DNA from: Microgenomates group bacterium GW2011_GWF2_46_18
GTDB taxonomy: Bacteria; Patescibacteriota; Microgenomatia; UBA1400; UBA12108
Assembly: GCA_001002415.1 (NCBI GenBank)
Contig: LCMB01000001.1
Coordinates: 33,999 to 97,998, forward strand
DNA length: 64,000 bases
Direction of reading: 5' to 3'
Shown: piece after piece, positions 48,100 to 64,000 of the stretch
Numbering within the stretch: the stretch's first letter is position 1
How the letters are laid out: every line of letters starts with the position of its first letter
The notes under the pieces: model-generated
Told to the model about the DNA's origin: nothing
Database searches by the model: none
Seen by the model: the letters and a program-made list of their open reading frames with translations, nothing else
Made by a program: the position numbers and the translations under genes

Positions 48100-50049
48100 T
48101 TACAGGGTTGTGGGGGATGGATAGGCGGAAATGAGTGGAACAGGAATGGGAGTGGGGGTTGGAGTAGGAGTTAGTTTGGGAGTGGGGGTTGGAGTAGGTT
48201 TTGGAGTGGGAGTTGGCAGAGTAGTAAGTTTGTATTGAAAGTAACCATTGCAGTTCAGCCATTCAGAACGAGCATAACGAGGGGCACATTTGCCGTCAGG
48301 ACTTTTGGTACCAGTAGAGAAAGTAACAGCACTTTCACTTTGAAAAACTTTGCCGTCAATGGTTATTAAATTAACCCGTAAATCTCGTTTGCTAAAATCG
48401 TTGGTAAAGGCGACTTGAAGTTTGTCGGTAGGCAAAATTTTTGTAGGGTGAGTGTAGGTAAATTTTTGAAAAGTGCGAAGAAATGGATTACCACGAACGT
48501 TTTTCCATTGCATGACTGTGCGACCATTAATCCGTAAGGCCATGGTGGGATAAAGGTCAGCATATTTGGTCCCAGCGGCGAGAATAGTAATCGTACTTTT
48601 CTGGGTGGTGAGAGAACAATCTTTGGGACATGATATGGGAGTTTCGGGACAAGGACAGCCGGTGCCGAGACAAACAATTTCTTCACAGGTACCATTGCCA
48701 CAGGTGTTCTTGCAGATAATCGAAGGACTCGGTGAGGGGAAAGTTGAGGGAATGGGTGGAAGAGAAGGTTGGGTTTTGAAAGCTAAAAGTTTGAGGTTTT
48801 TGAACACAAGATATCCCTGGTATTTACCTGAAGTGCTGGTTAAGACAAAACGATTAATAAACCTAGGTTCACCATACCAACCCATGCCGTTACGATGATC
48901 ATAGTAGATCCAATCACCGGGAGTTTTGCCATCGTAGGTACGGATTTGAGAAACACCCCATTGTTTGAGAGTACCATTGGTAGTCGCGACGTCTTCGGCA
49001 TAAAAATAGATATTAAGCCGCATCTCGCGGTCTTTCTCATGCCAGGTCGTTTCGAGGGTGGTGTAGTTGGGATTGCCTGGGTCAGAATGGAGGGTAACTT
49101 GGGTGTTACGACTATCAAAACGGACGCCGTCAGCGACTAAGTAAAAATCATCGGCAGATAGAGACACCTGGGGAGTTTCCCAAGAAACCTGATTGGGGGG
49201 AGAAGTGGGGACGGTTGATTCGACAAAGACTAAACCATCTCCGACAGGGGTTCCGGCGTGGGTTTGCCAATTCATCCCATTAAGATAATCGTTGTTCAGT
49301 TCGTAGCTGGCGATGATGCCGGGTTGCCAAATGGGCTCGCTGGGAATATCAAAATCGTGGGCGTATTTAGGCTGATCATAGATATAAATGTTGTCCAGTT
49401 TACCGAGAAAAACATTGTTGAGAGTAAGATTGTCGATGGGTTGAGAATTGTATCCTCCTAGAGTAAAAACGAGTCTGGAGTGTTTGGGGGAAGTGGAGCT
49501 AGTGGTAGTGGTGGCAATGATTTTCCCGTTAAGGAAAATTTTTACCCCTCGCAAGTCTCTTTGAAAAACTACGTGGTGCCAAGAGTTGGGGGTGACAACA
49601 AAAGGAGTGCGAAGTTCACGAGGACCAGATTCTTCCCAGTACCAACCAACAAGACTGCCCTTACCTTCGTTAAAATCGGCATTGCCCTGAAGGGAAAGTG
49701 AGGTTTGAATCCCACTATTATTACTGGGTTGGGAAAAAATATAGCGATCTTCTGATTGGGATGTGAAAGAATTGGGATAAATCCAAGCTTCAAAGGTAAA
49801 AGAACCGTCGGAAATTAGGGGGGGAAGGATGACGGCAGAGTTTTGATCGGTGATTTCAAGGGCTTGTTTAAATGGTTGGACTCCAGCGATTTCAGCGATT
49901 CGAGCAGGTTGAGAGAAACTGCGGTAGAGATAGACAAAAAGAGTTCCCAAGAGTAGAAGTAGCAGAAGAACAAACCAGGGTGCTTTAAAATTTAACTTGT
50001 GAGATCGGGATTTTTTGAGAAGGCGGCGCTTTTTTGATTTGGCGGGCAT
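48100..50049 (-). CDS. membrane-anchored surface protein with LamG-like, Cys-rich and CBM-like modules and a TP-repeat tail
   Basis: The track ORF starts at a TTG at 50091; I prefer the ATG at 50049. Basic N-terminus plus TM, a LamG-like stretch ([11 protein letters not shown]...WHHVVFQRD...[10 protein letters not shown]), [23 protein letters not shown], a beta-rich C-terminal module, and [22 protein letters not shown]. Confidence 0.55.
48148..48198. repeat. 30-nt-period tandem repeat encoding the Thr-Pro tail
   Basis: The 21-mer GGGAGTGGGGGTTGGAGTAGG occurs at 48148-48168 and again at 48178-48198, inside the 3' end of the surface-protein gene. Confidence 0.8.
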
Positions 50050-50100
50050 GATTTGATGGTAGGAGGTTGAGAGGGAGCTGTCAACTAGCAACTGAAAAGG

Positions 50101-50946: not shown

Positions 50947-52410
50947 TTAATCTTCGGTATTTATTTTCTTATAGGATATTATAAGGTCTTTTTCTTTGAT
51001 GTCAAGATTGGGGGAAAAAAGCAGACCACATTCATGACCGGTCTCGACTTTTTTGACCTCTTCTCTGCCTAGCCGAATACTGCGAATTTTGGCATCTTTG
51101 CTCACTTCACTGCGGACAAGGTGGATGGTGTCGCCAGTTTCAAAACGACCAGAGTCGACGCGGGTTCCGGCAATATGACTTCCATCAATATCAAAAGTTT
51201 TGAGGACGACTCCCCTACCCAATTCTTCTTCATCGATAGTTGGTTCCATGAGTTTAAAGACTTTCTTTTCCAAATAATCGAGAAGTTCGTAGATGATCGT
51301 AAAGCTTTTGACAGCAACCCCTTCGGCTTCGGCAAGTTTTTGGACACTACTAGGGATCCGAACGGCAAAGCCCAAGACGAGAGCTTGAGTCGAGATGGCG
51401 TGAAGAATATCGCTTTCAGTTAAGTCTCCGGTTCCGACGGTAATGATGTTGATTTCGGGGGTAAAACTGGCTTCAATGGCTTCGAGAGACCCAAGGGTGT
51501 CAGCACGGAGGATGAGGTTGAGACGATTGGGAGCCACGCCGTCGCCAGAGGCTATGGCGGGCGAGGCAATGTCGTCACTAGGGGCCATGGCGGGTTCGGG
51601 GGGCAAAGCCACCGAGCGAATAATTTCACCGACAGCGGGAAGAATTTTGAAACCAAGGATCTGGACGGGCATGCCGGGAGTAGCGAAAGGAATAGACTTA
51701 CCCAAATCATTAAACAAAGCCCGCACCCGACCGCCAACTATATCTTGACCAACTTTGATAGTACCTTCGCGAACGATAATGGAGACAAGGGGACCGCGGG
51801 TTGAATCAAGTTTGGCTTCGATGACGGGGGCAACGAGAGGAACGTCTGGGGAAGAGACTAGTTCTTCGAGTTCTGCCAAAAGGAGAATGGTTTCGAGGAG
51901 AGAATCTACCCCCAGGCCGGTTTTGCCCGAAATGAGCACAAAAGGAGTGTTCCCTCCATAACCTTCGACAAAAACTTGGTGCTCGGTCAATTGGGCTTTG
52001 ACACTATCGGGATTACTCCCCTCTTTGTCGACTTTATTAATGGCCACAACAAAAGGAATGGCGGCTTTTTGAATATGTTTGATGCTCTCGATAGTTTGGG
52101 GCATGACACCATCGCCGGCATCGACAACGAGGACAGCAATATCAGCAACTCCAGCACCGCGAGAACGCATGCGGTTAAAGGCAGCATGACCAGGAGTATC
52201 AATAAAGGTTAGGGGGTGACCACGAAAGTCAACTTGATAAGCACCGATCTTCTGGGTGATTCCTCCGGCCTCGCGGGCGGCAACGTGGGTGCTGCGAATA
52301 TAGTCAAGGAGGGTGGTTTTGCCGTGATCAACGTGCCCTAGAATTGCCACAATTGGCGGACGAGACGGTACAGAAGATTTTTGAGGTAGAGGTGTTTTTT
52401 GTTTCTTCAT
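50947..52410 (-). CDS. infB: translation initiation factor IF-2, short form
   Basis: 487 aa. It begins about 15 aa before the G domain ([21 protein letters not shown]) and has no long N-terminal region. Confidence 0.95.
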   Translation of the reverse strand: MKKQKTPLPQKSSVPSRPPIVAILGHVDHGKTTLLDYIRSTHVAAREAGGITQKIGAYQVDFRGHPLTFIDTPGHAAFNRMRSRGAGVADIAVLVVDAGDGVMPQTIESIKHIQKAAIPFVVAINKVDKEGSNPDSVKAQLTEHQVFVEGYGGNTPFVLISGKTGLGVDSLLETILLLAELEELVSSPDVPLVAPVIEAKLDSTRGPLVSIIVREGTIKVGQDIVGGRVRALFNDLGKSIPFATPGMPVQILGFKILPAVGEIIRSVALPPEPAMAPSDDIASPAIASGDGVAPNRLNLILRADTLGSLEAIEASFTPEINIITVGTGDLTESDILHAISTQALVLGFAVRIPSSVQKLAEAEGVAVKSFTIIYELLDYLEKKVFKLMEPTIDEEELGRGVVLKTFDIDGSHIAGTRVDSGRFETGDTIHLVRSEVSKDAKIRSIRLGREEVKKVETGHECGLLFSPNLDIKEKDLIISYKKINTED

Positions 52411-53805: not shown

Positions 53806-54045
53806 CTACTCTAGATTGGAGAAGTCTTCGTCTAAGATTACGGTGTTATTGAGATCGGTTTCGAGACTGGTGGCATCACTACTGGAACTAACCGGCTCGG
53901 TGGACTCGAGGGCGGAGTCAGGAGTCGGGGTAGTTGTGGCAATGGGTGAGCCGGTAGTTGATTCTCCCCCGGAGGGAATTAGGTTAGATAGGGAGCAACC
54001 ACCCAATAAAAGAGCACAAAAGCCGACTAGAATTAGTTTATTCAT
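53806..54045 (-). CDS. small lipoprotein
   Basis: 79 aa. Signal peptide with a lipobox (LLLGGC), then an S/T/P-rich acidic mature part. Confidence 0.6.
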   Translation of the reverse strand: MNKLILVGFCALLLGGCSLSNLIPSGGESTTGSPIATTTPTPDSALESTEPVSSSSDATSLETDLNNTVILDEDFSNLE

Positions 54046-54629
54046 AGGGAGTTCTCCACTCCAGCGCTACTGGCAGGTAGGGCCGGTTTACTAATGGTTT
54101 TAAGTTCCTTGAGGGCATCCTTGAGTAGTTGGTGAGCTTCCTGGAAAAGCTGCTTGGCAGAGAGCGCAAGATCTTTGGCAGCTAAAAGTTCGGTCTTTTG
54201 CTCGGCAAATTTGGCGGGATCGATAGCCTGAAAAGCGGCAATAGCGTCGTTCCCCTTGGCCTTGGCAGCGGTTAATTTGGCTTCGGCAAGATCTAGTTTG
54301 GCTTCAATACTCGTCACGGTTTTTCCGGCAGTGCGCAAAATTTCGAGGCGAGCGCGGAAGCGAATAATGATGTTAGTCAAGCGATCAAAGTAAAACTGAA
54401 AGCGACGAGTTAAACGGTTGGCGTGATTTTCGGCCACCTGGGATCTGATTTGTTGCCGTTCAGCTTGGATTTCTTGAATTTCAGCTTGACGAACTTCCCT
54501 AATTTCATCACGGCGTCTCAGGGGAGAGGCTTCGATCGAAGCGTCTTGGGCGAGAGCGGGGAGGGCAATACTGAAGAAAATGAAGGAGAGTACAAAGAGC
54601 CAAGTAGTTTTTTTGAACGACATAAACAA
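54042..54629 (-). CDS. secreted coiled-coil protein
   Basis: 195 aa. Signal peptide (ALPALAQD) followed by a long helical A/K/E/Q/R-rich sequence. GGAGG SD. Confidence 0.45.
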   Translation of the reverse strand: MFMSFKKTTWLFVLSFIFFSIALPALAQDASIEASPLRRRDEIREVRQAEIQEIQAERQQIRSQVAENHANRLTRRFQFYFDRLTNIIIRFRARLEILRTAGKTVTSIEAKLDLAEAKLTAAKAKGNDAIAAFQAIDPAKFAEQKTELLAAKDLALSAKQLFQEAHQLLKDALKELKTISKPALPASSAGVENSL

Positions 54630-54674: not shown

Positions 54675-55682
54675 TCAATCTGGCAGAGTAATAGTAAAAG
54701 TGCGAGTTTGTTCGGTTTTATTCCCTCTGGCATCGGTAATTTTGACGCTATAGGTGTGGGTGGTGTTGTGCTCATTGGCAAAACAGTACCTAGTACCAGT
54801 AAAAGCAGTCCAGTCGGCCGAGTCGACTTTTTGTTCGATTTTGAGAGCGGAGACCAAAGTCACATTGTCAGAAATATATTGGGGGAAGAGACAAACTCCG
54901 GTAGTACCCTCGTAAACAGGACCCATCAAAGTAAAGTTGGGAGGGATATTGTCCGCTAGGTTGGTCCAGTCTACCCGAGCCAAGTCGTTGGCATAATTTC
55001 CCTCTTTTAATGAACGGGTGGGATTAAGGACAAGTTTGGCAGTGTGAGCACCGAGTGCGGTCGTGACATCGTGGCACCAGTCATAAATTCTGCCAGCTTC
55101 CATAATGCCAATACTAGAAAAATTATCTTGGACTTCGGTTACATTGTCGAGAGAAAAGGTGTAATTGATCAGCGCGCCGTCTAGTTTTTCGTTGGCAATA
55201 AGATGATAACAGACGGTAACACGAGGAGACCAGCTAGAGGGAAGTTCATCAAATTGACCAGTTTGAATACTACTGTATTCTCGGTTAATTACCCGCCCAG
55301 TGCCGGAGCCATCATCAAAGGTCTGTTTGATGTTGGCACTCGGGTTGCCAAAGCGAAGATCAAGATTTATGGGGGTAAAACTGGGAATGGTCGGAAGAGG
55401 AGATGGTTTGGAGGTGGGTTTAAGGGATGGTTTGAGAGAGGGCTTGGGAGAAGATTTGGGAGAAGCCGAAGGGGTTGCACTCACTGAGGGGGTGGGAGAG
55501 ACGATGGGGGAAGGAGAGGGAGAAGAATTAATTTCTGATTTTAATTTGGTGAGATAGTAAAAACCGCCAAGCCCGCCGGCTAACAGAAAAACGAAGAGAC
55601 TACCTAATAAGAGTGGCCAAAGGGGAAAACTCCGCCTGGGAGGAGTAACGGGGAGGATGGGGGTAGTTTCTAGTTCGGACAT
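54675..55682 (-). CDS. membrane-anchored surface protein with S/P-rich linker and CARDB-like/Ig-like C-terminal region
   Basis: 335 aa. N-terminal TM, then SPSPSPIVSPTPSVSATPSASPKSSPKPSLKPSLKPTSKPSP, then beta-rich domains. GAHTAKLVLNPTRSLKEGNYAND resembles CARDB motifs. Confidence 0.45.
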   Translation of the reverse strand: MSELETTPILPVTPPRRSFPLWPLLLGSLFVFLLAGGLGGFYYLTKLKSEINSSPSPSPIVSPTPSVSATPSASPKSSPKPSLKPSLKPTSKPSPLPTIPSFTPINLDLRFGNPSANIKQTFDDGSGTGRVINREYSSIQTGQFDELPSSWSPRVTVCYHLIANEKLDGALINYTFSLDNVTEVQDNFSSIGIMEAGRIYDWCHDVTTALGAHTAKLVLNPTRSLKEGNYANDLARVDWTNLADNIPPNFTLMGPVYEGTTGVCLFPQYISDNVTLVSALKIEQKVDSADWTAFTGTRYCFANEHNTTHTYSVKITDARGNKTEQTRTFTITLPD

Positions 55683-55690
55683 GACAAGAT

Positions 55691-56569
55691 TTAGTATAGT
55701 TCAGCATGGAGCTGTTGTACAAGCTCTTTGCCACGACGAGATAGTTTGGTGGGGAACATCACCTTAAATTTGATGTAAAGATCACCGCGGCCGCTTCTTT
55801 GCAAGTGTTTGACACCTTTGCCGGAAAGCCGGATGCTAGTGCTGGGCTGAGTAAGCGGACGAACTTTGATAGTTAATTTGCCTTCGAGAGTGGGGATCTC
55901 GGTTTCTCCTCCTTGGATAGCCAGGGTGAACGGAATAGCGTGGAGAAGAAACAGATCATCTCCTTCTCGGCGGAAGGTAGAGTCGGGACGGACATTAAGG
56001 GAAATATCAAACTCGGAATAGCGAATCCTGGTTCCATCACTGGCCCCGGCGGGGATTTTGACAGTGTATTGTTTACCCTGGTGGACAAAGGTTTTTTCCG
56101 CACCGCGGACTGCTTCAAGAAAATCGATGGTTAAACTGTAGTGGGGTTTGGGACGGTAACTTCCGCCAAAAGGATTACTCCCACCAAAGAAAGATTCAAA
56201 AATATTAAAGGGGTCAGAGAAGCCTTGGCCTTGGGTACCACCAAAAAGATCTTCAAAGCCACCACCTGTGGAATAGGTGTAGGTAAAGGGACCAGAACGA
56301 TAACTTTGTCCCCCACCCCCATAGTTACCAAAACCAGAAGAGGGATCGAAAGCGGCATGACCAAATTGATCGAATTTGGCACGTTTATCGGCTGAGCTTA
56401 AAACTTCGTAGGCTTCGTTAATTTCTTTGAATTTGGCTTCGGCACCGGGCTCTTTGTTGCGGTCTGGGTGCCATTTGAGGGCAAGTTTCCGATAGGCACT
56501 TTTGAGTTCAGCGTCGGAGGCCTTCCGGCTGACTCCCAAAACTTCATAATAATCGCGTTTAGAGCTCAT
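55691..56569 (-). CDS. dnaJ: DnaJ-family co-chaperone, class B-like (no zinc-finger domain)
   Basis: 292 aa. J domain with HPD ([13 protein letters not shown]), a G/F-rich region and C-terminal substrate-binding domains. It has no Cys at all, so there is no CxxCxGxG repeat. Confidence 0.87.
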
Positions 56570-56570
56570 G

Positions 56571-56597
56571 GTAGCAATTTTAACACGAGAGTGCTAA
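56571..56597 (-). promoter_or_regulatory. CIRCE-like inverted repeat with embedded extended -10, abutting the dnaJ start
   Basis: Minus strand reads TTAGCACTC-tcgtgttaa-AATTGCTAC-c-ATG. The left arm matches the CIRCE half-site 9/9 and the right arm 6/9. TGTTAAAAT lies inside it, 7 nt before the ATG. Confidence 0.45.
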
Positions 56598-57676
56598 GAA
56601 CCGGAAGCGGAGCGTTCTTCTTGAGTTTTGAACCAGTCGCGCATGGTATTGACCATTAGTCGTTTGAGAATTTCGGGGAAATCGATCTCATAGAGCGAGA
56701 GAATATTGGCGAGAGCAACGTCTAGTTCTTTGGGACCAAAGGCGGGGTTACTATTACTATCGATGAAGTAATAACGACCAGATTGGTCGACGCGAATATC
56801 AAATTTTCCGTAACCACCCATTTTGAGAATATCAAAGGCACGGCGGACTAATTCGTTGAGGGTAGGATCACTGATTTTTTTGTAAGTATAGGTTTCGCCA
56901 CCTTCAACCCATTGTGCATCGAAAGTGACAAATTGCATGGGGTCAGTAGCGTCCGGAAAGACTTTTTCGGCAAGATAGACTTTGGTATTGCCACCCTCTA
57001 GAACAATGGCGGTATATTCGCGGCCGGCAATAAATTCTTCGGCGATAATTGGTTGTTGATAGGTTTTGATCAAAAATTTAATACGGTCACGAAGGTGTTT
57101 TTCGTCAGGAGAGATGGCATCTTGAGTGACTTCGACAGCTCCATGAATTTCGTTAAGTTTGGTAATTAGGGGGAAGCGGAGCTCGGGATTAAGAGGAGTT
57201 GTTGCTGAGGTTAAAAGTTGAGTACGGGGGACAGGAATGCCATGACTAACTAGGAGTTCTTTGACCAAATACTTGTTGTAAGCTAAGGCTTCCCCCAACA
57301 TCCCGGCGCCAGTATAGGGGATATCCATCGCTTCGAGAATCCCGGGGATGGTGGCTGACAAGTATTCTTGACCACTAATAGAGCCAACTAGATTAAAGAT
57401 CATGTCGGGTTTGTCACGGAGAATACTTGACAAAGTTTCGGGACGGCCAGCGTAGAGTTTGGTTTTGATCCCCATTTTCACTAAATAGGTGGCAATGACT
57501 TCAGCTTCGTGAGTAGCATCTTTTTCGGTCAAGTATTGAGTTTCGGTCGGAAAGTATTCTCGTTTGACCTCACTATGGAGGATACCCACAAATTTGGGAA
57601 GGGGAAAACCATTGCCGTTAGTTTTGCTAGTACCTCCAGGTTCGTCGGGTTTTTTGGGGGGTTGATCAGTGGCCAT
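56594..57676 (-). CDS. ATP-grasp ligase, D-Ala-D-Ala-ligase-like paralogue of unknown substrate
   Basis: 360 aa. DMIFNLVGSISGQEY...IPYTGAG, PLITKLNEIHGAVEV, IAEEFIAGREYTAIVL and GKFDIRVD...YFIDSNSNP follow the ATP-grasp order. It lacks the Ddl N-terminal GGxSxE motif. The disordered N-terminus is P/K/G-rich. Confidence 0.75.
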   Translation of the reverse strand: MATDQPPKKPDEPGGTSKTNGNGFPLPKFVGILHSEVKREYFPTETQYLTEKDATHEAEVIATYLVKMGIKTKLYAGRPETLSSILRDKPDMIFNLVGSISGQEYLSATIPGILEAMDIPYTGAGMLGEALAYNKYLVKELLVSHGIPVPRTQLLTSATTPLNPELRFPLITKLNEIHGAVEVTQDAISPDEKHLRDRIKFLIKTYQQPIIAEEFIAGREYTAIVLEGGNTKVYLAEKVFPDATDPMQFVTFDAQWVEGGETYTYKKISDPTLNELVRRAFDILKMGGYGKFDIRVDQSGRYYFIDSNSNPAFGPKELDVALANILSLYEIDFPEILKRLMVNTMRDWFKTQEERSASGS

Positions 57677-58142
57677 ATTGATTCAAGATAACGATCAGAC
57701 GACGAATAGTCAAGTCAGCCGAACTTTTAATATATTCGCCAGGGAAGTCAAACCAGATACGAAAAAATTTGCTGCGGCGCATGGCGCGCACATGGCCAAT
57801 TTCGGGGTCAAGGAGATAGATGTTTTCGGTATCAAGATCAACCACAACCGAGTAATGACCATCATCTTCGGAGAACCAGTCAACAATGACGGGAATTTGA
57901 TCGGTTTTGACTAAACGTTCGAGATCTTCGAAAGTTGAATTGTCTTGAAAGTAACCCTTAAAACCGAGGGACTCGGACGCTTCGATCATGCGAGAGGCAT
58001 CAACACCGACAGCGGGGTCAGCCCGCATTAACTCGGCAAGTTCGGCTTCGGTTTTCTCGACACCATAGTAGGAAAGAACCATCTTGATGGTGGCGGGGCC
58101 ACAGAGACCGGTTTTTTGACGAAAAGGTTTGACTTTGAGCAT
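57666..58142 (-). CDS. stand-alone C39-like papain-fold cysteine peptidase
   Basis: 158 aa. RQKTGLCGPATIKMVLSYYG (Gln9, Cys14), DGHYSVVV (His96) and YLLDP (Asp112) match the C39 catalytic arrangement. It starts 2 nt after the dnaK stop, and its stop overlaps the ATP-grasp start by 11 nt. Confidence 0.75.
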   Translation of the reverse strand: MLKVKPFRQKTGLCGPATIKMVLSYYGVEKTEAELAELMRADPAVGVDASRMIEASESLGFKGYFQDNSTFEDLERLVKTDQIPVIVDWFSEDDGHYSVVVDLDTENIYLLDPEIGHVRAMRRSKFFRIWFDFPGEYIKSSADLTIRRLIVILNQYGH

Positions 58143-58144
58143 AG

Positions 58145-60025
58145 TTATTTTTGCTCGTCAACGACTTCACCCTCTTCGGCCTTGGCCGCGTCTTCGGAGG
58201 CGGCAGTCGGCTCCTCGGCCTTGGATTCACCTTCTTTGGGAGCAGTCTCGGCAGCGGCTTTATACAGGCGTTCGCCGTATTTGGAAAGAGCTTCGGAAGC
58301 CTTTTTAAAAGCTTCGTCGATACTTTCGACAGTTGCATCCTCTTTGTCTTTGGCTTCCTTGAGGGCCTTGACAGAGTCTTCGATTGCGGTTTTCTCATCC
58401 GCCTGAAGTTTGTCCCCGGCTTCCTTGAGGGTTTTTTCGGTTTGGAAGATTAAAGAATCGGCTTCGTTCTTTTTTTCGATCAACTCTTTCTTCTTCTTGT
58501 CTTCTTCGGCGTGGAGTTCGGCCTCTTTTTTCATCTTCTCCACCTCTTCGTCACTCAAATTGGTGGCGTTTTGGATGGTGATTTTTTGTTCTTTGCCGGT
58601 ACCTTTGTCTTTGGCATTGACATGCAAAATACCTGAGGCGTCAATATCGAAGGTAACTTCGATTTGGGGAATTCCGCGCGGAGCGGGGGCAATCCCATCG
58701 AGGATGAAGCGGCCGAGCGATTTGTTGTCGGCGGCCATCGGACGCTCACCTTGCAAGATATTGATTTCAACCTGAGGTTGATTGTCGCTGGCGGTACTAA
58801 AGACCTGGCTCTTGCTGGTCGGGACGGTGGTGTTACGGTCGATTAAAGGAGTGCGAACAGCCCCCATGGTTTCGATACCGAGAGTCAGAGGAGTTACGTC
58901 GAGTAACAGCACGTCGTTGACTTCCCCACCCAAGATACCAGCTTGGATAGCGGCACCAACAGCAACGACTTCGTCGGGGTTTACTCCTTTGTGAGGCTCT
59001 TTGCCGAAGAAGTCTTTGACGGCTTTTTGGACGGCGGGCATTCTGGTCTGACCACCAACCAAAACAACTTCGTCGATATCACTGGTTTTGAGTGTTTTCT
59101 TGATCAAATCATCCACAAGCTCTTCTAGTTTGGAGCGGGTGATTGTCATGGTTAAGTGTTTGGGTTGACCATCACTTCCTTGGGTAATAAAGGGTTGATT
59201 GATCTCAGCGGAAGCCGAACTACTGAGTTCAATTTTGGCTTTTTCGGCGGCATCGCGGATCCGTTGGAGGGCTTGTTTGTCGCTTGCAAGATCGATCCCC
59301 TGATCTTTTTTGAACTCGGAAACGAGGTAGTCTACCAGGCGATGATTAAAATCATCACCTCCTAAAAAGGTATCACCGTTGGTGGCTTTGACTTCGAAAA
59401 CTCCGTCACCGATTTCCAAAACACTAATGTCAAAAGTGCCACCACCCAAATCATAGACAGCAATTTTCCCGACTTTCTTTTTGTCGAGACCGTAGGCTAA
59501 AGCAGCCGCAGTTGGCTCGTTGACGATGCGTTCAACTTTGAGGCCAGCAATTTCTCCGGCTTGTTTGGTAGCCTGGCGTTGGGAGTCGTCGAAGTAGGCA
59601 GGAACGGTGATGACGGCACTATCAACTTTGGTACCCAAATAAGCTTCGGCGTCAGCTTTGGCTTTTTGGAGGATTTTGGCGGAAATTTCTTGGGGAGTAT
59701 AGATTTTGCCATCGACTTTGACGGCAGCGGTGTCATTTTTGCCGCCAACGATTTCATAGGGCACTTTTTTGATCGTGTCTTTGACCATTGCGTCGTCCAA
59801 GTGGCGACCCATCAGGCGCTTGATACTATAGATAGTATTTTTGGAGTTTAAAACCATTTGATTTTTGGCCACTTGACCAACTAAACCTTTAACTGGTTCA
59901 ACAATGCTGGGGATGGTGTTTCCGCCTTCGGCGGAAGGAATAACTTTGGGTTTGCCGCCTTCCATAACAGCCACACAACTGTTGGTAGTACCTAGGTCGA
60001 TTCCGATAGTTTTAGTGTTGGACAT
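58145..60025 (-). CDS. dnaK: chaperone DnaK (Hsp70)
   Basis: 626 aa. [18 protein letters not shown] and [12 protein letters not shown] motifs, with an acidic C-terminus. Confidence 0.98.
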
Positions 60026-60046: not shown

Positions 60047-60502
60047 TTAATTTGACGAATTAATTTGGCCGTTGCCCACGACCACACGAGCGGGGCGAAG
60101 GACACGACCATTTAGTATATAACCTGGACGAATAACAGAGAGAACCTGATCTTTAACTCCAGGAGCGGTTTCGTGACATTCCATGAGGTTGGGATCGAAA
60201 ACTCCATCCGTTTTGACAACGGTAACCCCTTCTTCGGTCAAGATTTTGTCGAAAGCGGAGAGAATAAGCTCTAGAGATTGGTCCCCGCGTGCGGCGGCTA
60301 AACCCAAATGATCACGGACTTCGAGGAGTTTGGCCAAGAGATTGGCGTTGGCAAATTGGACAATACTGGCGCTATCACGAGCGAAACGTTTCTCAAGATT
60401 GGCATAATCGGCAAGCGCCCGGGCTAGGGAAGATTCTAGATCTTTAACTGATTTGGACGAAGAATGAGTTTTGACGGGTTTAGTTTTCATAGTTAACTCC
60501 AA
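60047..60502 (-). CDS. grpE: nucleotide exchange factor GrpE (short)
   Basis: 151 aa. Coiled-coil plus beta-domain (FDPNLMECHE...GYILNGRVLRPARV). The start may instead be the Met at 60490. Confidence 0.85.
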   Translation of the reverse strand: MELTMKTKPVKTHSSSKSVKDLESSLARALADYANLEKRFARDSASIVQFANANLLAKLLEVRDHLGLAAARGDQSLELILSAFDKILTEEGVTVVKTDGVFDPNLMECHETAPGVKDQVLSVIRPGYILNGRVLRPARVVVGNGQINSSN

Positions 60503-61224
60503 GAAGCGGAGATTTCATCTAATAAATTGCTCATATGTCTAAGCATGGGCATAACGTAGGGATAGTTGAGACGGGCGGGACCAATCACTCCTAAGTGGCC
60601 GTTGATATTGCCAGCACGGAAATCAAGATAGGCCATGGCACAAGGGTAGAGGAACTCATTACCAAATTCGTCACCCAGAATAATATGGAGGGGTTGAGTG
60701 TCTAAAACCCGGCCAAAAATTGCTTCGAGCGCGGCATGGCTCTCGATGATAGAGAGAACTTGGCGGGTAACGTCAATGTCAAAAAATTCGGGAAGGGTTA
60801 AGAGGTTGGCGTAACCAGCTGAGTAGACGGCTCCGTCGCTCGTTGTGGCAAAGCCAATGTTGTTGGTTTTTTCGGAGAGAACGTGAGTGGCTTCACGCAA
60901 GAGAGTATCAATTTTTTGACGGTGATCCCAGATCCGCTCTTTGACCGAAACTTCTTCGGTTACGGGAAGCGTATCTTCTTTCATGAGTTCGGAGATATAG
61001 AGTTTGAGGGCCACGGGAGTTGGGACGCGGCCAGCAGAGGTGTGGGGTTGCTTGAGGTAACCCAAATCTTCAAGCCTCACCATTTCGTTTCTGATGGTGG
61101 CCGGAGAGATACCAAGGTTGTATTTTTTATCGAGAGTGTCACTCCCGACAGCTTCGCCAGTAGTCGTATATTCCTCGACAATGGCTTTGATAATACTGAT
61201 TTGGCGGGGTGATAAAGGTTTCAT
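60493..61224 (-). CDS. hrcA: heat-inducible transcription repressor HrcA (short)
   Basis: The track ORF extends to 61311. I prefer the Met at 61224 (MKPLSPRQISIIKAIVEEY...GEAVGS...SPATIRNEM). wHTH N-terminus. First gene of the hrcA-grpE-dnaK order. Confidence 0.85.
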   Translation of the reverse strand: MKPLSPRQISIIKAIVEEYTTTGEAVGSDTLDKKYNLGISPATIRNEMVRLEDLGYLKQPHTSAGRVPTPVALKLYISELMKEDTLPVTEEVSVKERIWDHRQKIDTLLREATHVLSEKTNNIGFATTSDGAVYSAGYANLLTLPEFFDIDVTRQVLSIIESHAALEAIFGRVLDTQPLHIILGDEFGNEFLYPCAMAYLDFRAGNINGHLGVIGPARLNYPYVMPMLRHMSNLLDEISASWS

Positions 61225-61250
61225 TAGCACTATAATAGCGAGAGTGCTAG
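61224..61250. promoter_or_regulatory. CIRCE operator
   Basis: Plus strand reads TTAGCACTa-N9-GAGTGCTAg, against the consensus TTAGCACTC-N9-GAGTGCTAA. Its last base is the A of the hrcA ATG on the minus strand. Confidence 0.85.
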
Positions 61251-61260
61251 GTCGTGTCAA
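61232..61260 (-). promoter_or_regulatory. sigma70-type promoter of the hrcA operon
   Basis: Minus strand reads TTGACA-17 nt-TATTAT-AGTGCTA-ATG. The -35 begins 4 nt after the lepA stop, and CIRCE overlaps the spacer and the -10. Confidence 0.65.
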
Positions 61261-61264
61261 GAGG

Positions 61265-63046
61265 CTAAATTTTAAGGATGGCGGTAAAGGCAGCTTGGGG
61301 GACTTCGACATTACCCAGCATTTTCATCTTCTTTTTCCCCTTCTTTTGTTTTTCGAGCAGTTTGCGATTGCGAGTCATATCACCACCATGAAGTTTGGCA
61401 GTTACATCTTTGCGAAAAGCCCGAATGGTGGCACGAGCGATGATTTTTCCACCAATGGCGGCTTGAATAGCCACTTCAATCAGAGAACGGGGAATCGCAT
61501 CTTTAAGTTTTTCGACTAGGACTCTTCCCCTCCCCTCGGCAGAAAAACGAGGAGAAACAAAAGAGAGAGCGCCGGCTTCTTCACCGTTTAAGAGAATATC
61601 GACTTTGACGGCGTCGACTACTTGATAACCGCCGTGATCATACTGGACGCTGGCGTAGCCGGAACTAACTGATTTGAGGCGATCATAAAAATCGGTAATA
61701 AGTTCGGATAAGGGCATTAGGTAGTTGAGACGAACACGACCTCCCAAATACTCTAGATCAATAAACTCGGCTCGCTTGCCCTGACAAAGTTCCATGATCC
61801 CCCCAACATATGGTTCGGGGGTAAAGACAGTTAGAGTCACAACTGGTTCTTCGATATGATCAATGACTTCAGGACGCGGCCAATCAGAAGGAGAAGAAAC
61901 TTCGAGGTGATCGCCATTTTTGAGAGTCATTTGATAGGGAACGGAGGGAGAGGTATTGACAACCTGGACTTCAAATTCGCGGGAAAGACGTTCGGTTACA
62001 ATCTCGGCGTGCAAAATGCCGAGAAAACCCACGCGGAAACCATGTCCTAGGGCGGGGCTGGCGGCAGCATGGTAGGAAAGAGCGGCGTCATTGAGGGCAA
62101 GTTTGCCTAGAGCGTCAACAAGATTACGATAATTACCAGCGTCAATCGGGTACAGATCCATGAAAACCATGGGCTGGGGACGTTGATAACCAGCGATGGG
62201 AGTGATGTTTGCTCCAACGACAGTAAGGGTGTCACCAATGGTAATAGCGCGAATGTCTTTGTGACCGGTGGCGATATAACCGACTTCGCCTACCCCGAGG
62301 TGATCAACGGAGTGCATGTCGGGAGCAAAATAGCCAATTTCTAGAGGGGATAATTTCTCACGAGTAGCAAAGAGGTAAAGTTGGTCACGATTGTTCGGGT
62401 TGATGTCGCCTTCGAAAATTTTGACAAAGGCAATAACACCTTTGTGCTGGTCAAAAATTGAATTAAAGACTAGTGCGCGCAATGATGTATGGTTCGGAAC
62501 TGAAGGGGACGGAATGCGCGTGACAATGGCATCCAAGAGTTCGGTTACACCGGCACCTGATTTGGCGGAGCCAAAAATAATTTCTTCGGCCTTAAAGCCG
62601 AGAGTGTCGATCAGCTCTTGTGCCAACCGTTCTGGTTCGGCGGCGGCCATATCAATTTTGTTAATGAAGGGAATGATGGTTAGGCCAGCACTAATGGCTT
62701 TGTCATAGTTGGCAAGAGTCTGTGCTTGAATACCTTTGGTAGCATCAACTACCAAGACGGCTCCTTCACACGCGTGAAGGGCACGACTAACTTCGTAACT
62801 AAAGTCGACGTGACCGGGAGTATCAATGAGATTGAGCTGATAATTGATATTTGCGAGCTGATAATGCATGCGGACGGGGGCGAGCTTGATGGTAATTCCC
62901 CTTTCCTGTTCGATGGGATTACTATCCAATCGCCGCGCAGTTCCACCCATGGGAATGGTATGAGTAACCTCGAGCAAACGATCGGTGAGGGTAGTTTTGC
63001 CGTGATCAATATGAGCAATAATCGAAAAATTGCGAATGTTAGACAT
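61265..63046 (-). CDS. lepA: elongation factor 4 (LepA)
   Basis: The track ORF extends to 63133. I prefer the Met at 63046 (MSNIRNFSIIAHIDHGKTTL). DTPGHVDF and NKID motifs, with the LepA-specific C-terminus. Confidence 0.95.
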   Translation of the reverse strand: MSNIRNFSIIAHIDHGKTTLTDRLLEVTHTIPMGGTARRLDSNPIEQERGITIKLAPVRMHYQLANINYQLNLIDTPGHVDFSYEVSRALHACEGAVLVVDATKGIQAQTLANYDKAISAGLTIIPFINKIDMAAAEPERLAQELIDTLGFKAEEIIFGSAKSGAGVTELLDAIVTRIPSPSVPNHTSLRALVFNSIFDQHKGVIAFVKIFEGDINPNNRDQLYLFATREKLSPLEIGYFAPDMHSVDHLGVGEVGYIATGHKDIRAITIGDTLTVVGANITPIAGYQRPQPMVFMDLYPIDAGNYRNLVDALGKLALNDAALSYHAAASPALGHGFRVGFLGILHAEIVTERLSREFEVQVVNTSPSVPYQMTLKNGDHLEVSSPSDWPRPEVIDHIEEPVVTLTVFTPEPYVGGIMELCQGKRAEFIDLEYLGGRVRLNYLMPLSELITDFYDRLKSVSSGYASVQYDHGGYQVVDAVKVDILLNGEEAGALSFVSPRFSAEGRGRVLVEKLKDAIPRSLIEVAIQAAIGGKIIARATIRAFRKDVTAKLHGGDMTRNRKLLEKQKKGKKKMKMLGNVEVPQAAFTAILKI

Positions 63047-63056
63047 GATCCGCATT

Positions 63057-64000
63057 TTACACTGAGCTCTCGGAGGTATCGAGCGTTTCTTTGGATTGAC
63101 CCAGCGCTTTTTGCCAGTTACCGATTTTCTCAATAAGGTGAAGGAAGACGCCTAATTCGCGAATATTAAAGAGATAAGAAAGGGTTAAGTAGACGGCAGT
63201 GCCGATTAAAGTAACGGAGAGAGTCAACATAATGAGGGGAATGGTGCGAGTAGTATCAAAAATCATTTGATCTAAGATTCGGAGCGGGGCCCAGAGGGCA
63301 AGAGCGGTTAGAGCAGAGGCAAACAAGATTTTGCCCAAGGGAAAAAGAATGTGAACAAGGGCAAATTGAGCCAAGCTGTAAAGAATCAGAACTAAGACAA
63401 TCGTTTCGATCAGCGAGGCAATGGAGATGGCAGCGGCCATCCCCAAAACACTGGATTTGAGAACAAACAAAAAATAGTAACTCAAGCTCACATTAGTAAC
63501 GGTCGAGATGGTGTTGATAATGAGGGGGGTGCGAGTATCGTGCATAGCATAAAAAACACGGACAAGAACGTGGGTTAGGGAGCGAGCGGCAATGGAAATC
63601 GCTAAGATGGCTACCAGTTTGCCAGTTAAGACGGTTTCACTCCAGGGGAATGAGTCAGCTCCGTAGGCTAACCGAACTAAGGGGACGCGTAAGATGAGGA
63701 TAATTACGGAAGCAGGAAGGGCGAGATAGAGCATTTCTAAAATAGTATTGTTCACCATCGAAGCGAGATCTTTGAGATTGTTGCCATGAGTAACTTTGGC
63801 GAAAAATGGCAAAGAAGCTTGGCCGATCGGAATTCCAATCAAGCGAACAGGAAGATTGGCTAATTGTTGAGCGAGGGAGATTAAAGTGACGGTCCCGGAA
63901 GAAAGCCAGGTGGAGAAAGTAATAATCATTGTTGCTTCAATTTGAGTTAGGGAAAGAGTAAGCATCCGCGGCAACATCAAGCGAGACATTTCGGAAACGG
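63057..64000 (-). CDS. murJ: lipid II flippase MurJ (MviN), 3' part; gene continues beyond the window
   Basis: Polytopic sequence with MurJ-like motifs (LPFFAKV..., VFYAMHDTRTPLI). The reading frame is still open at position 64000. Confidence 0.8.
   Translation of the reverse strand, partial: VSEMSRLMLPRMLTLSLTQIEATMIITFSTWLSSGTVTLISLAQQLANLPVRLIGIPIGQASLPFFAKVTHGNNLKDLASMVNNTILEMLYLALPASVIILILRVPLVRLAYGADSFPWSETVLTGKLVAILAISIAARSLTHVLVRVFYAMHDTRTPLIINTISTVTNVSLSYYFLFVLKSSVLGMAAAISIASLIETIVLVLILYSLAQFALVHILFPLGKILFASALTALALWAPLRILDQMIFDTTRTIPLIMLTLSVTLIGTAVYLTLSYLFNIRELGVFLHLIEKIGNWQKALGQSKETLDTSESSV

Follow-up and report, generated by a model that had tools for sequence, protein, structure and literature searches.

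The pairing of an amide ligase with a thiol peptidase is a logic known from several systems. In glutathionylspermidine synthetase/amidase, an ATP-dependent amide ligase and a thiol amidase act on one and the same bond. Genes unrelated to chaperones are likewise known as passengers of heat-shock operons, as in Bacillus subtilis, where yqeT-yqeU-yqeV follow dnaJ in the hrcA-grpE-dnaK-dnaJ operon controlled by HrcA and its operator, the controlling inverted repeat of chaperone expression (CIRCE). In the biosynthesis of closthioamide, amides are assembled by an ATP-grasp enzyme together with a C39/BtrH-like Cys-His-Asp transacylase, and carrier proteins are needed (PMC7183216). Here, we analyzed a 64,000-nt stretch of contig LCMB01000001.1 from Microgenomates group bacterium GW2011_GWF2_46_18 (hereafter the window), in which a C39-type cysteine peptidase gene and a gene for an ATP-grasp ligase related to D-alanine–D-alanine ligase (Ddl) are found between dnaK and dnaJ. 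The two protein families, and the module they form, are uncharacterised variants of the ligase–peptidase logic. An original prediction from the sequence had proposed that this pair is a heat-shock-regulated, reversible ligation system, and had been aware of no description of such a pair within a dnaK operon; no description of the pair or of the ligase family was found in the literature searched.

Each of the described systems resembles the pair only in part. The CtaD/CtaG pair and the BtrJ/BtrH pair of butirosin resemble it in combining an ATP-grasp ligase with a Cys-His-Asp enzyme of C39/BtrH-like type, which serve one amide pathway there (PMC7183216), CtaG being a weak fold match of the window peptidase. 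However, these pathways are thiotemplated with carrier proteins and the window ligase comes from a different ATP-grasp branch; no small carrier-protein open reading frame (ORF) was adjacent to the pair in the operon or at the ligase loci surveyed. The glutathionylspermidine enzyme is a CHAP amidase fused to a GspS-type synthetase, whereas the window encodes two separate genes of C39 and Ddl type, and the pair gave no Pfam match to CHAP or GspS domains. A defence system was also considered and set aside, as neither protein was matched by the PADLOC anti-phage models.

The hrcA–dnaJ region lies on the minus strand of the window, where the ORF list and a Pfam profile search assign all six genes and place the two extra ones between dnaK and dnaJ (Table 1), as had been predicted. 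Between the dnaK stop codon (TAA) and the peptidase ATG there are only two nucleotides, CT, while the ligase start and the peptidase stop share 11 nt (ATGGCCACTGA). No GGAGG-like Shine–Dalgarno site was found in the sequence upstream of either the peptidase or the ligase start, also in line with the original prediction, and no terminator-like site is predicted between dnaK and the pair. Ahead of dnaK itself, AGGAGG provides a strong Shine–Dalgarno site. The same TAACTATG design of stop, 2 nt, and start recurs at the hrcA/grpE junction (60488-60497) and at the dnaK/peptidase junction (58140-58149). The real start of hrcA is probably the ATG at 61224 rather than the start of the longest ORF, and that of grpE is probably the ATG at 60490, located 2 nt past the hrcA stop with GGAG upstream. 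No zinc finger of DnaJ was matched by Pfam in the window dnaJ product.

Table 1 Positions of genes, regulatory elements, and neighbouring ORFs in the window
Feature	Position	Strand	Basis or remark
hrcA (longest ORF)	60493-61311	-	Pfam HrcA 3.1e-15, HrcA_DNA-bdg 1e-3
grpE	60047-60502	-	Pfam
dnaK, 626 aa	58145-60025	-	Pfam HSP70 4e-240
C39-type (clan CA) cysteine peptidase, stand-alone, cytosolic, 158 aa	57666-58142	-	Pfam, profile and fold matches
Ddl-fold ATP-grasp carboxylate-amine ligase, not a Ddl, 360 aa	56594-57676	-	Pfam, curated profiles, fold matches
dnaJ, 292 aa, J domain and C-terminal domain	55691-56569	-	Pfam
CIRCE at hrcA, 2 mismatches, CTAGCACTC-N9-TAGTGCTAA	61250-61224	-	Sequence scan
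Promoter-like TTGACA (61260-61255), 17 nt, TATTAT (61237-61232)	61224-61260	-	Overlapped by CIRCE; geometry read from sequence
Second, CIRCE-like repeat, 3 mismatches, TTAGCACTC-N9-AATTGCTAC	56571-56597	-	Sequence scan
MurJ	63057-63989		ORF
LepA	61265-63133		ORF
IF-2	50947-52410		ORF
Predicted secreted/membrane proteins downstream of dnaJ	54675-55682, 54042-54629, 53806-54045, 48100-50091		

The peptidase matches Pfam Peptidase_C39 well above threshold (8.9e-15; 55.1 bits against a cutoff of 22), with further matches to C39_2 and C70. Its Cys14, His96, and Asp112 are invariant in 22 homologues at 49–70% identity, at least 90% of which also keep Gln9, so that both the intact Gln/Cys/His/Asp arrangement initially noted and its conservation among relatives hold. 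Searches with the family profile returned the C39 domains of PCAT1 and ComA (~4e-10) and, nearly equally, the pseudomurein endoisopeptidase PeiR (1.8e-8). A predicted model (predicted local distance difference test, pLDDT, 83) gave the same ranking by fold, with template modelling (TM) scores of ~0.7, and weaker matches to the closthioamide transacylase CtaG, staphopains, and Josephin-type enzymes. With the exporter domains of PCAT1, ComA, and LahT the window peptidase thus has in common a Pfam C39 match above cutoff, the four active-site residues, and a TM-score of ~0.7, but it is stand-alone and cytosolic, and lacks an exporter or leader-peptide gene: no bacteriocin ABC exporter and no precursor or Gly-Gly leader ORF was detected in the operon or in 160 related loci. 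The likeness to PeiR extends to the fold (PDB 8z4h; E 2e-7, TM 0.68). However, PeiR is an extracellular phage lysin with additional cell-wall-binding parts, whereas the window protein is a bare catalytic domain without export signal, for which there is no space since the catalytic Cys is at residue 14. The family consists of stand-alone proteins of ~154 aa across candidate-phyla bacteria and probably also DPANN archaea; a Woesearchaeota archaeon is the recorded source of one member.

The second protein matches Dala_Dala_lig_C in Pfam (2.6e-9), and its conserved residues and fold place it in the ATP-grasp superfamily. Ddl is its nearest relative by both sequence and fold, and Ddl structures are its top fold matches, yet it scores far below the cutoffs of curated Ddl profiles (97.4 bits vs 243 for NF002378; 81.9 vs 245.65 for TIGR01205). 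The ATP/Mg residues K135, K173, E213/E214, D293, D306, and N308 are kept and invariant in the ligase family, and correspond to K97, K144, E180, D257, E270, and N272 of Escherichia coli DdlB in an alignment that serves as a guide only. The substrate side is different. The GGxSxE motif, whose Glu15 binds D-Ala1, is absent from the ligase, which carries an invariant S-E-V-K-R-E-Y-F-P-T-E...T-E-K-D-A segment instead; the Ddl omega-loop Lys215-Tyr216 is replaced by Gln255-Trp256 and Arg255 by Lys291, and an inserted NPAFGPKE segment takes the place of the Ser281/Leu282 D-Ala2 pocket. These replacements at the D-Ala site are invariant across 24 family members. In short, the window ligase shares with Ddl and VanA-type ligases the fold, the three-domain ATP-grasp architecture, and the ATP/Mg residues, but neither the D-Ala-site residues nor the scores (82–97 bits against cutoffs of 243–246), and is best read as an offshoot of the Ddl lineage whose substrate pocket has been rebuilt. 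Because a genuine Ddl (318.6 bits, cutoff 262) is encoded 6 kb from the ligase in the complete Woesebacteria genome CP055308, the ligase probably represents an extra enzyme and not the Ddl of the cell.

This agrees with the original prediction of a Ddl-like ATP-grasp ligase lacking GGxSxE, and differs from what would be expected of a protein clustering with genuine Ddl and retaining their D-Ala-binding residues, two of the three traits that the prediction had together named as speaking against it, the third being a sole ddl in the genome; a separate ddl coexists with the ligase in CP055308. The N-terminus is probably disordered, as predicted, residues 1–22 being of low confidence in the model. 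An exact match of the ligase is recorded from Microgenomates group bacterium GW2011_GWC1_46_16, and across deep lineages, comprising much of the candidate phyla radiation and Anaerolineae, the protein remains 55–74% identical. In the otherwise variable N-terminal tail (residues 1–30; 57587-57676 in the window), a short conserved motif reads [DE][DE]KPP in most members, the window clade and a small number of other members having [DE][EK]PGG instead.

To evaluate how consistently the two genes occur together, 80 genome loci were surveyed from the ligase side and 80 metagenome loci from the peptidase side. Among the 20 peptidase relatives with at least 57% identity, one runs off its contig, and all 19 that could be assessed are followed by the ligase. 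Stop and start codons overlap by 4–23 nt in most pair-carrying loci, and the peptidase also heads longer operons in which the ligase is followed by a second ligase or by an LdmS-like ligase (L010, L014, L066, L104, L105/106). The pair is thus a genuine translationally coupled module, the coupled unit originally predicted, although one restricted to a single Microgenomates subclade. The expected co-occurrence in related genomes was therefore borne out for the close peptidase relatives but not beyond them: an upstream same-strand peptidase is present at only 8 of 80 ligase genome loci, and none of 60 peptidase relatives at 49–56% identity is followed by the ligase, their contexts including smpB, infC-rpmI-rplT, and argS. 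Each gene is also widespread without the other. Four of these 60 distant peptidases (L115 3275-6269, L152 1142-4139, L160 5001-6957, and L117) adjoin, tail to tail on the opposite strand, a pair of Ddl-like ATP-grasp genes (496 and 345 aa). These contigs may be DPANN-archaeal, and the arrangement is a second, independent adjacency of this peptidase family and Ddl-like ligases.

The commonest partners of the ligase family across the 80 genome loci are other enzymes of amino acid ligation and modification. A second Ddl-like ATP-grasp ligase adjoins it in ~31 loci; considered as a possible true Ddl, this protein was rejected at 165 bits against a cutoff of 243 and without GGxSxE. An LdmS/BesA-like ATP-grasp (L-amino-acid ligase) adjoins the ligase in 9 loci, a KamA-family radical-SAM amino-acid 2,3-aminomutase in 7–9, and a MurL-like protein in 5. 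The LdmS/BesA-like proteins are 440–480 aa long with weak BesA/LdmS matches (L037 7980-9371, L043, L051, L066, L083, L086), and the MurL-like protein, of 460 aa, is encoded upstream of the ligase and weakly matches MurL, the UDP-MurNAc-L-Ala-L-Glu epimerase (L067 5575-6957, L041, L073). Ddl-like ligases are also found as fused double proteins of 650–720 aa (P0278, P0283, P0285, P0293, P0299, P0301, and others), in which both units are nearer to the second-ligase type than to Ddl, which indicates that such ligases work in pairs. Look-ups of the clusters of distant relatives returned no functional names. At 18 of the 80 loci, a membrane-anchored ClpB/ClpC-like AAA+ gene (~750 aa) adjoins the ligase divergently (L016, L017, L021, L023, L042, L049, L052, L057, and others); it is part of a conserved rpsB-tsf-galU-Big_1-tmk block, and the intergenic region that it shares with the ligase contains no CIRCE.

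Next, we evaluated how the pair may be transcribed in the window lineage. The original prediction placed it in a CIRCE-controlled operon, and a CIRCE is indeed found on the hrcA promoter, where the chance expectation for such a match is 0.02 per window. The locus hence displays both features of a CIRCE/HrcA regulon, i.e., the inverted repeat at a promoter and the hrcA gene. The final A of this element is the A of the probable hrcA ATG (61224), 7 nt past the -10 hexamer. A second, CIRCE-like repeat that the prediction had missed runs over the ligase stop codon and stops 1 nt short of the dnaJ ATG; it is kept at the equivalent position in a relative at ~72% identity (L093) and in a contig of the same species (L087). 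Its spacer holds TGTTAAAAT, an extended -10-like hexamer ending 7 nt before the dnaJ ATG, which may be the -10 of a dnaJ promoter. Both CIRCE spacers thus contain a -10-like hexamer (TATTAT at hrcA, TGTTAAAAT at dnaJ), each ending exactly 7 nt before an ATG. This layout suggests two HrcA-controlled, possibly leaderless units of like design, with dnaJ as the putative second one, in which case the hrcA-grpE-dnaK transcript would end with the peptidase and ligase genes at its 3′ side. From the gene order and these elements, the pair very probably rides the HrcA/CIRCE-controlled hrcA-grpE-dnaK transcript in the window lineage, and is probably induced by heat there. The B. subtilis operon is similar in its CIRCE operator at the promoter, in having hrcA first, and in the co-transcription of extra non-chaperone genes. 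The window locus differs from it in that the extra genes lie between dnaK and dnaJ, in that dnaJ has its own CIRCE-like element, and in that the identity of the passengers varies between sister lineages.

The position next to dnaK is, however, confined to few lineages. Pairs in this position were detected only in the window species, including L087, and in about two sister lineages (L008, L093, and L088), and the dnaK-operon arrangement accounts for a single one of the 80 ligase genome loci (L008). In two of these loci, other genes intervene between dnaK and the peptidase: upp, encoding uracil phosphoribosyltransferase (2e-64), in L093 (4318-4950), and an unrelated 183-aa ORF in L008 (3269-3820). 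The dnaK–dnaJ gap collects unrelated passengers. In sister lineages (67–70% peptidase identity), the pair is instead located between tRNA-Gln and an array of tRNA-Leu/Lys/Val/Phe/Gly genes. More broadly, of 101 ligase loci, 42 have tRNA genes close to them, and islands of this type recur across Woesebacteria and Chisholmbacteria, while no tRNA genes were found in the window between 50 and 64 kb. In these islands (L072, L075, L077, L081, L055, L007, L089, L097, L020, L005), tRNA-Arg(tct) or tRNA-Gln(ttg) lies 60–520 nt upstream of the ligase, and tRNA-Gly/Phe/Val/Leu genes begin 1–70 nt downstream. In a scan of 1.5 Mb of related loci, CIRCE was confined to the hrcA and dnaJ genes in L087 and L093, and it never preceded the ligase elsewhere.

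Taken together, the few lineages concerned, the variable passengers, the tRNA-island synteny elsewhere, and the confinement of CIRCE indicate that the dnaK position is derived and lineage-specific, and the heat-shock link looks like a local accident. Conserved heat-shock control was accordingly rejected, the CIRCE scan being negative outside dnaK operons, and with it the view of the original prediction that such control is an integral property of the pair. Its suggestion that the pair might stay inside dnaK operons applies to L087, L008, L093, and L088, but not to the relatives that carry the pair in tRNA islands or multi-ligase operons. Mobile cargo was another candidate, since large serine recombinases and phage-like genes flank the pair in L007, L090, and L096, but the adjacent tRNA genes explain these neighbours.

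The reading that we tentatively favour, and consider plausible rather than established, is that a small peptide or amide is built step by step with ATP and independently of nonribosomal peptide synthetases, that the peptidase acts on the product, and that the wiring to dnaK is specific to this lineage. The ligase would activate a carboxylate as an acyl-phosphate and join it to an amine, as one step toward a small cytoplasmic peptide or amide that possibly includes a beta- or D-residue. Cys14, His96, and Asp112 of the peptidase would form a thioester with the ligase product or a precursor, which might then be hydrolysed, for turnover, trimming, or editing, or transferred. In the window lineage, the module would have left the tRNA island where it usually resides and come to lie between dnaK and a dnaJ unit with a CIRCE and promoter of its own, and would therefore be co-transcribed with hrcA-grpE-dnaK and probably heat-induced. 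Peptide assembly is preferred over the dedicated cycle of adding and removing a tag put forward in the original prediction because the commonest partners of the ligase are amino-acid ligases and amino-acid-modifying enzymes.

Several observations weigh against this assembly model. The substrate and product assigned to the ligase are a proposal, and its predicted structure is of moderate quality (pLDDT 66.6), usable for fold class only. An identity of 55–74% across deep lineages is unusual for secondary-metabolite ligases and would fit a protein or cell-envelope substrate. The window shows the ligase and peptidase only, with the other ligases not nearby, and the MurL-like partner is matched weakly (5.8e-8; 31.7 bits, with the cutoff at 700). 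Finally, the distant peptidase relatives (49–56%) mostly occur in housekeeping contexts without any ligase, and the role of the peptidase may be broader or different.

A cell-envelope role is one alternative. VanA-type and D-Asp ligases, the VanA/VanX logic, and PeiR-like isopeptide cleavage are models for a variant of cell-wall precursor synthesis in which an alternative stem or cross-bridge amide of peptidoglycan would be made or lengthened by the ligase, and the peptidase would cleave the competing or recycled peptide in the cytoplasm, as a dipeptidase or endoisopeptidase. Ddl is the nearest family of the ligase, the peptidase matches PeiR almost as well as C39 exporter domains, a MurL-like protein and a FemAB-family gene are found near the ligase in some loci, MurJ in the window implies that the organism makes murein, and the high conservation suits a core envelope function. 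We nonetheless consider this unlikely, given that the ligase has kept neither the D-Ala-binding residues nor the omega-loop Lys-Tyr, that mur genes are not consistently adjacent in the 80 loci, that the peptidase, with its catalytic Cys at residue 14, has no signal peptide, and that related peptidases, along with pairs of Ddl-like ligases, are found on archaeal-looking contigs, where murein is absent. Reversible tagging of proteins or of a small molecule with an amino acid or peptide tail during proteotoxic stress, under heat-shock regulation and with the peptidase removing the tag, fits the window itself: the pair is co-oriented with dnaK at a distance of 2 nt, without a predicted terminator between them and under the CIRCE promoter, and the arrangement is kept in sister lineages at ~72% identity. 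A protein substrate would accord with the high sequence conservation, and a ClpB-like AAA+ gene is divergently adjacent at 18 of 80 ligase loci. Yet the dnaK position is limited to few close lineages, upp and another unrelated ORF occupy the same gap, no CIRCE precedes the ligase at any other locus, and most ligase loci have no peptidase; moreover, the ClpB-like adjacency reflects one synteny block with rpsB-tsf-galU-tmk and not an operon, and the ligase family is Ddl-like rather than RimK-, TTL-, or PafA-like. This makes the tagging proposal improbable, and its narrower form, in which, under HrcA/CIRCE control, a protein would receive an amino acid or short peptide from the ligase and lose it again through the peptidase, a shade more so. 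If true, reversible amide tagging would be a new bacterial post-translational modification cycle, with targets such as a chaperone client or a translation component.

It is similarly improbable that the two genes have no functional link with each other or with chaperones and are independent housekeeping genes brought together by the synteny of compact genomes. While each gene is widely found alone, and candidate-phyla genomes are compact with many mixed operons, the stop/start overlaps are kept in relatives from 57% to 97% identity and in at least three contexts (dnaK operon, tRNA island, and multi-ligase operons), and the peptidase family has its second independent adjacency to Ddl-like ligases on other contigs. 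A direct action of the peptidase on its partner was suggested by the ligase tail: C39 enzymes cut after Gly-Gly, and [DE][EK]PGG is found ~10–15 residues from the N-terminus in the window clade and several peptidase-linked ligases, most others having [DE][DE]KPP, such that cleavage at this site could activate or regulate the ligase. In a first count, PGG was carried by 10 of the 15 ligases that had a peptidase next to them and by 3 of the 63 that had none. This enrichment was weakened by a neighbour-joining tree, in which PGG forms only 2–3 independent clades, and by a wider sample including ~8 peptidase-linked lineages without PGG (P0025, P0029, P0038, P0040, P0043, P0044, P0055/P0059, L009); some PGG ligases have no adjacent peptidase, and the amphipathic helix typical of double-glycine leaders is missing from the tail. 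Self-processing, with the Gly-Gly tail as the peptidase target, is thus retained only as a very unlikely reading. Least probable of all, to the point of being scarcely credible, is maturation of a bacteriocin or another peptide made by the ribosome and modified after translation (RiPP), by a double-glycine leader protease and a graspetide-type cyclase, or else a thiotemplated CtaD/CtaG-like pathway. Profile and fold searches with the peptidase rank C39 domains of bacteriocin exporters first, and CtaG is among its weaker fold matches, but an ABC exporter, a precursor-peptide ORF, and a carrier-protein gene are all absent from the operon and related loci, the ligase is of Ddl type and not of microviridin or RimK type, and PADLOC returned no matches.

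The assignment of the ligase bears on genome annotation, as members of its family are often labelled "D-alanine-D-alanine ligase" in public records, which can inflate or distort cell-wall reconstructions. Its set of partners points to a small peptide or amide, so far undescribed, that belongs to the core physiology of ultra-small bacteria. The window lineage, for its part, provides a natural case of the module under probable heat-shock control, which is not evidence of a chaperone-linked function.

Elsewhere in the window, Rfam returned no match to RNA elements. Downstream of dnaJ, several predicted secreted or membrane proteins carry Pro/Ser/Thr-rich linkers. Two proteins in this region, of 335 and 195 aa, have no Pfam match, and a 663-aa protein combines Laminin_G_3 and CBM60 domains with a (TPTPKP)n tail. 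The ORF of the lipid II flippase MurJ (310 aa), whose match to the MurJ profile is limited to the C-terminal portion, is followed by LepA, and the IF-2 of the window is short, at 487 aa.

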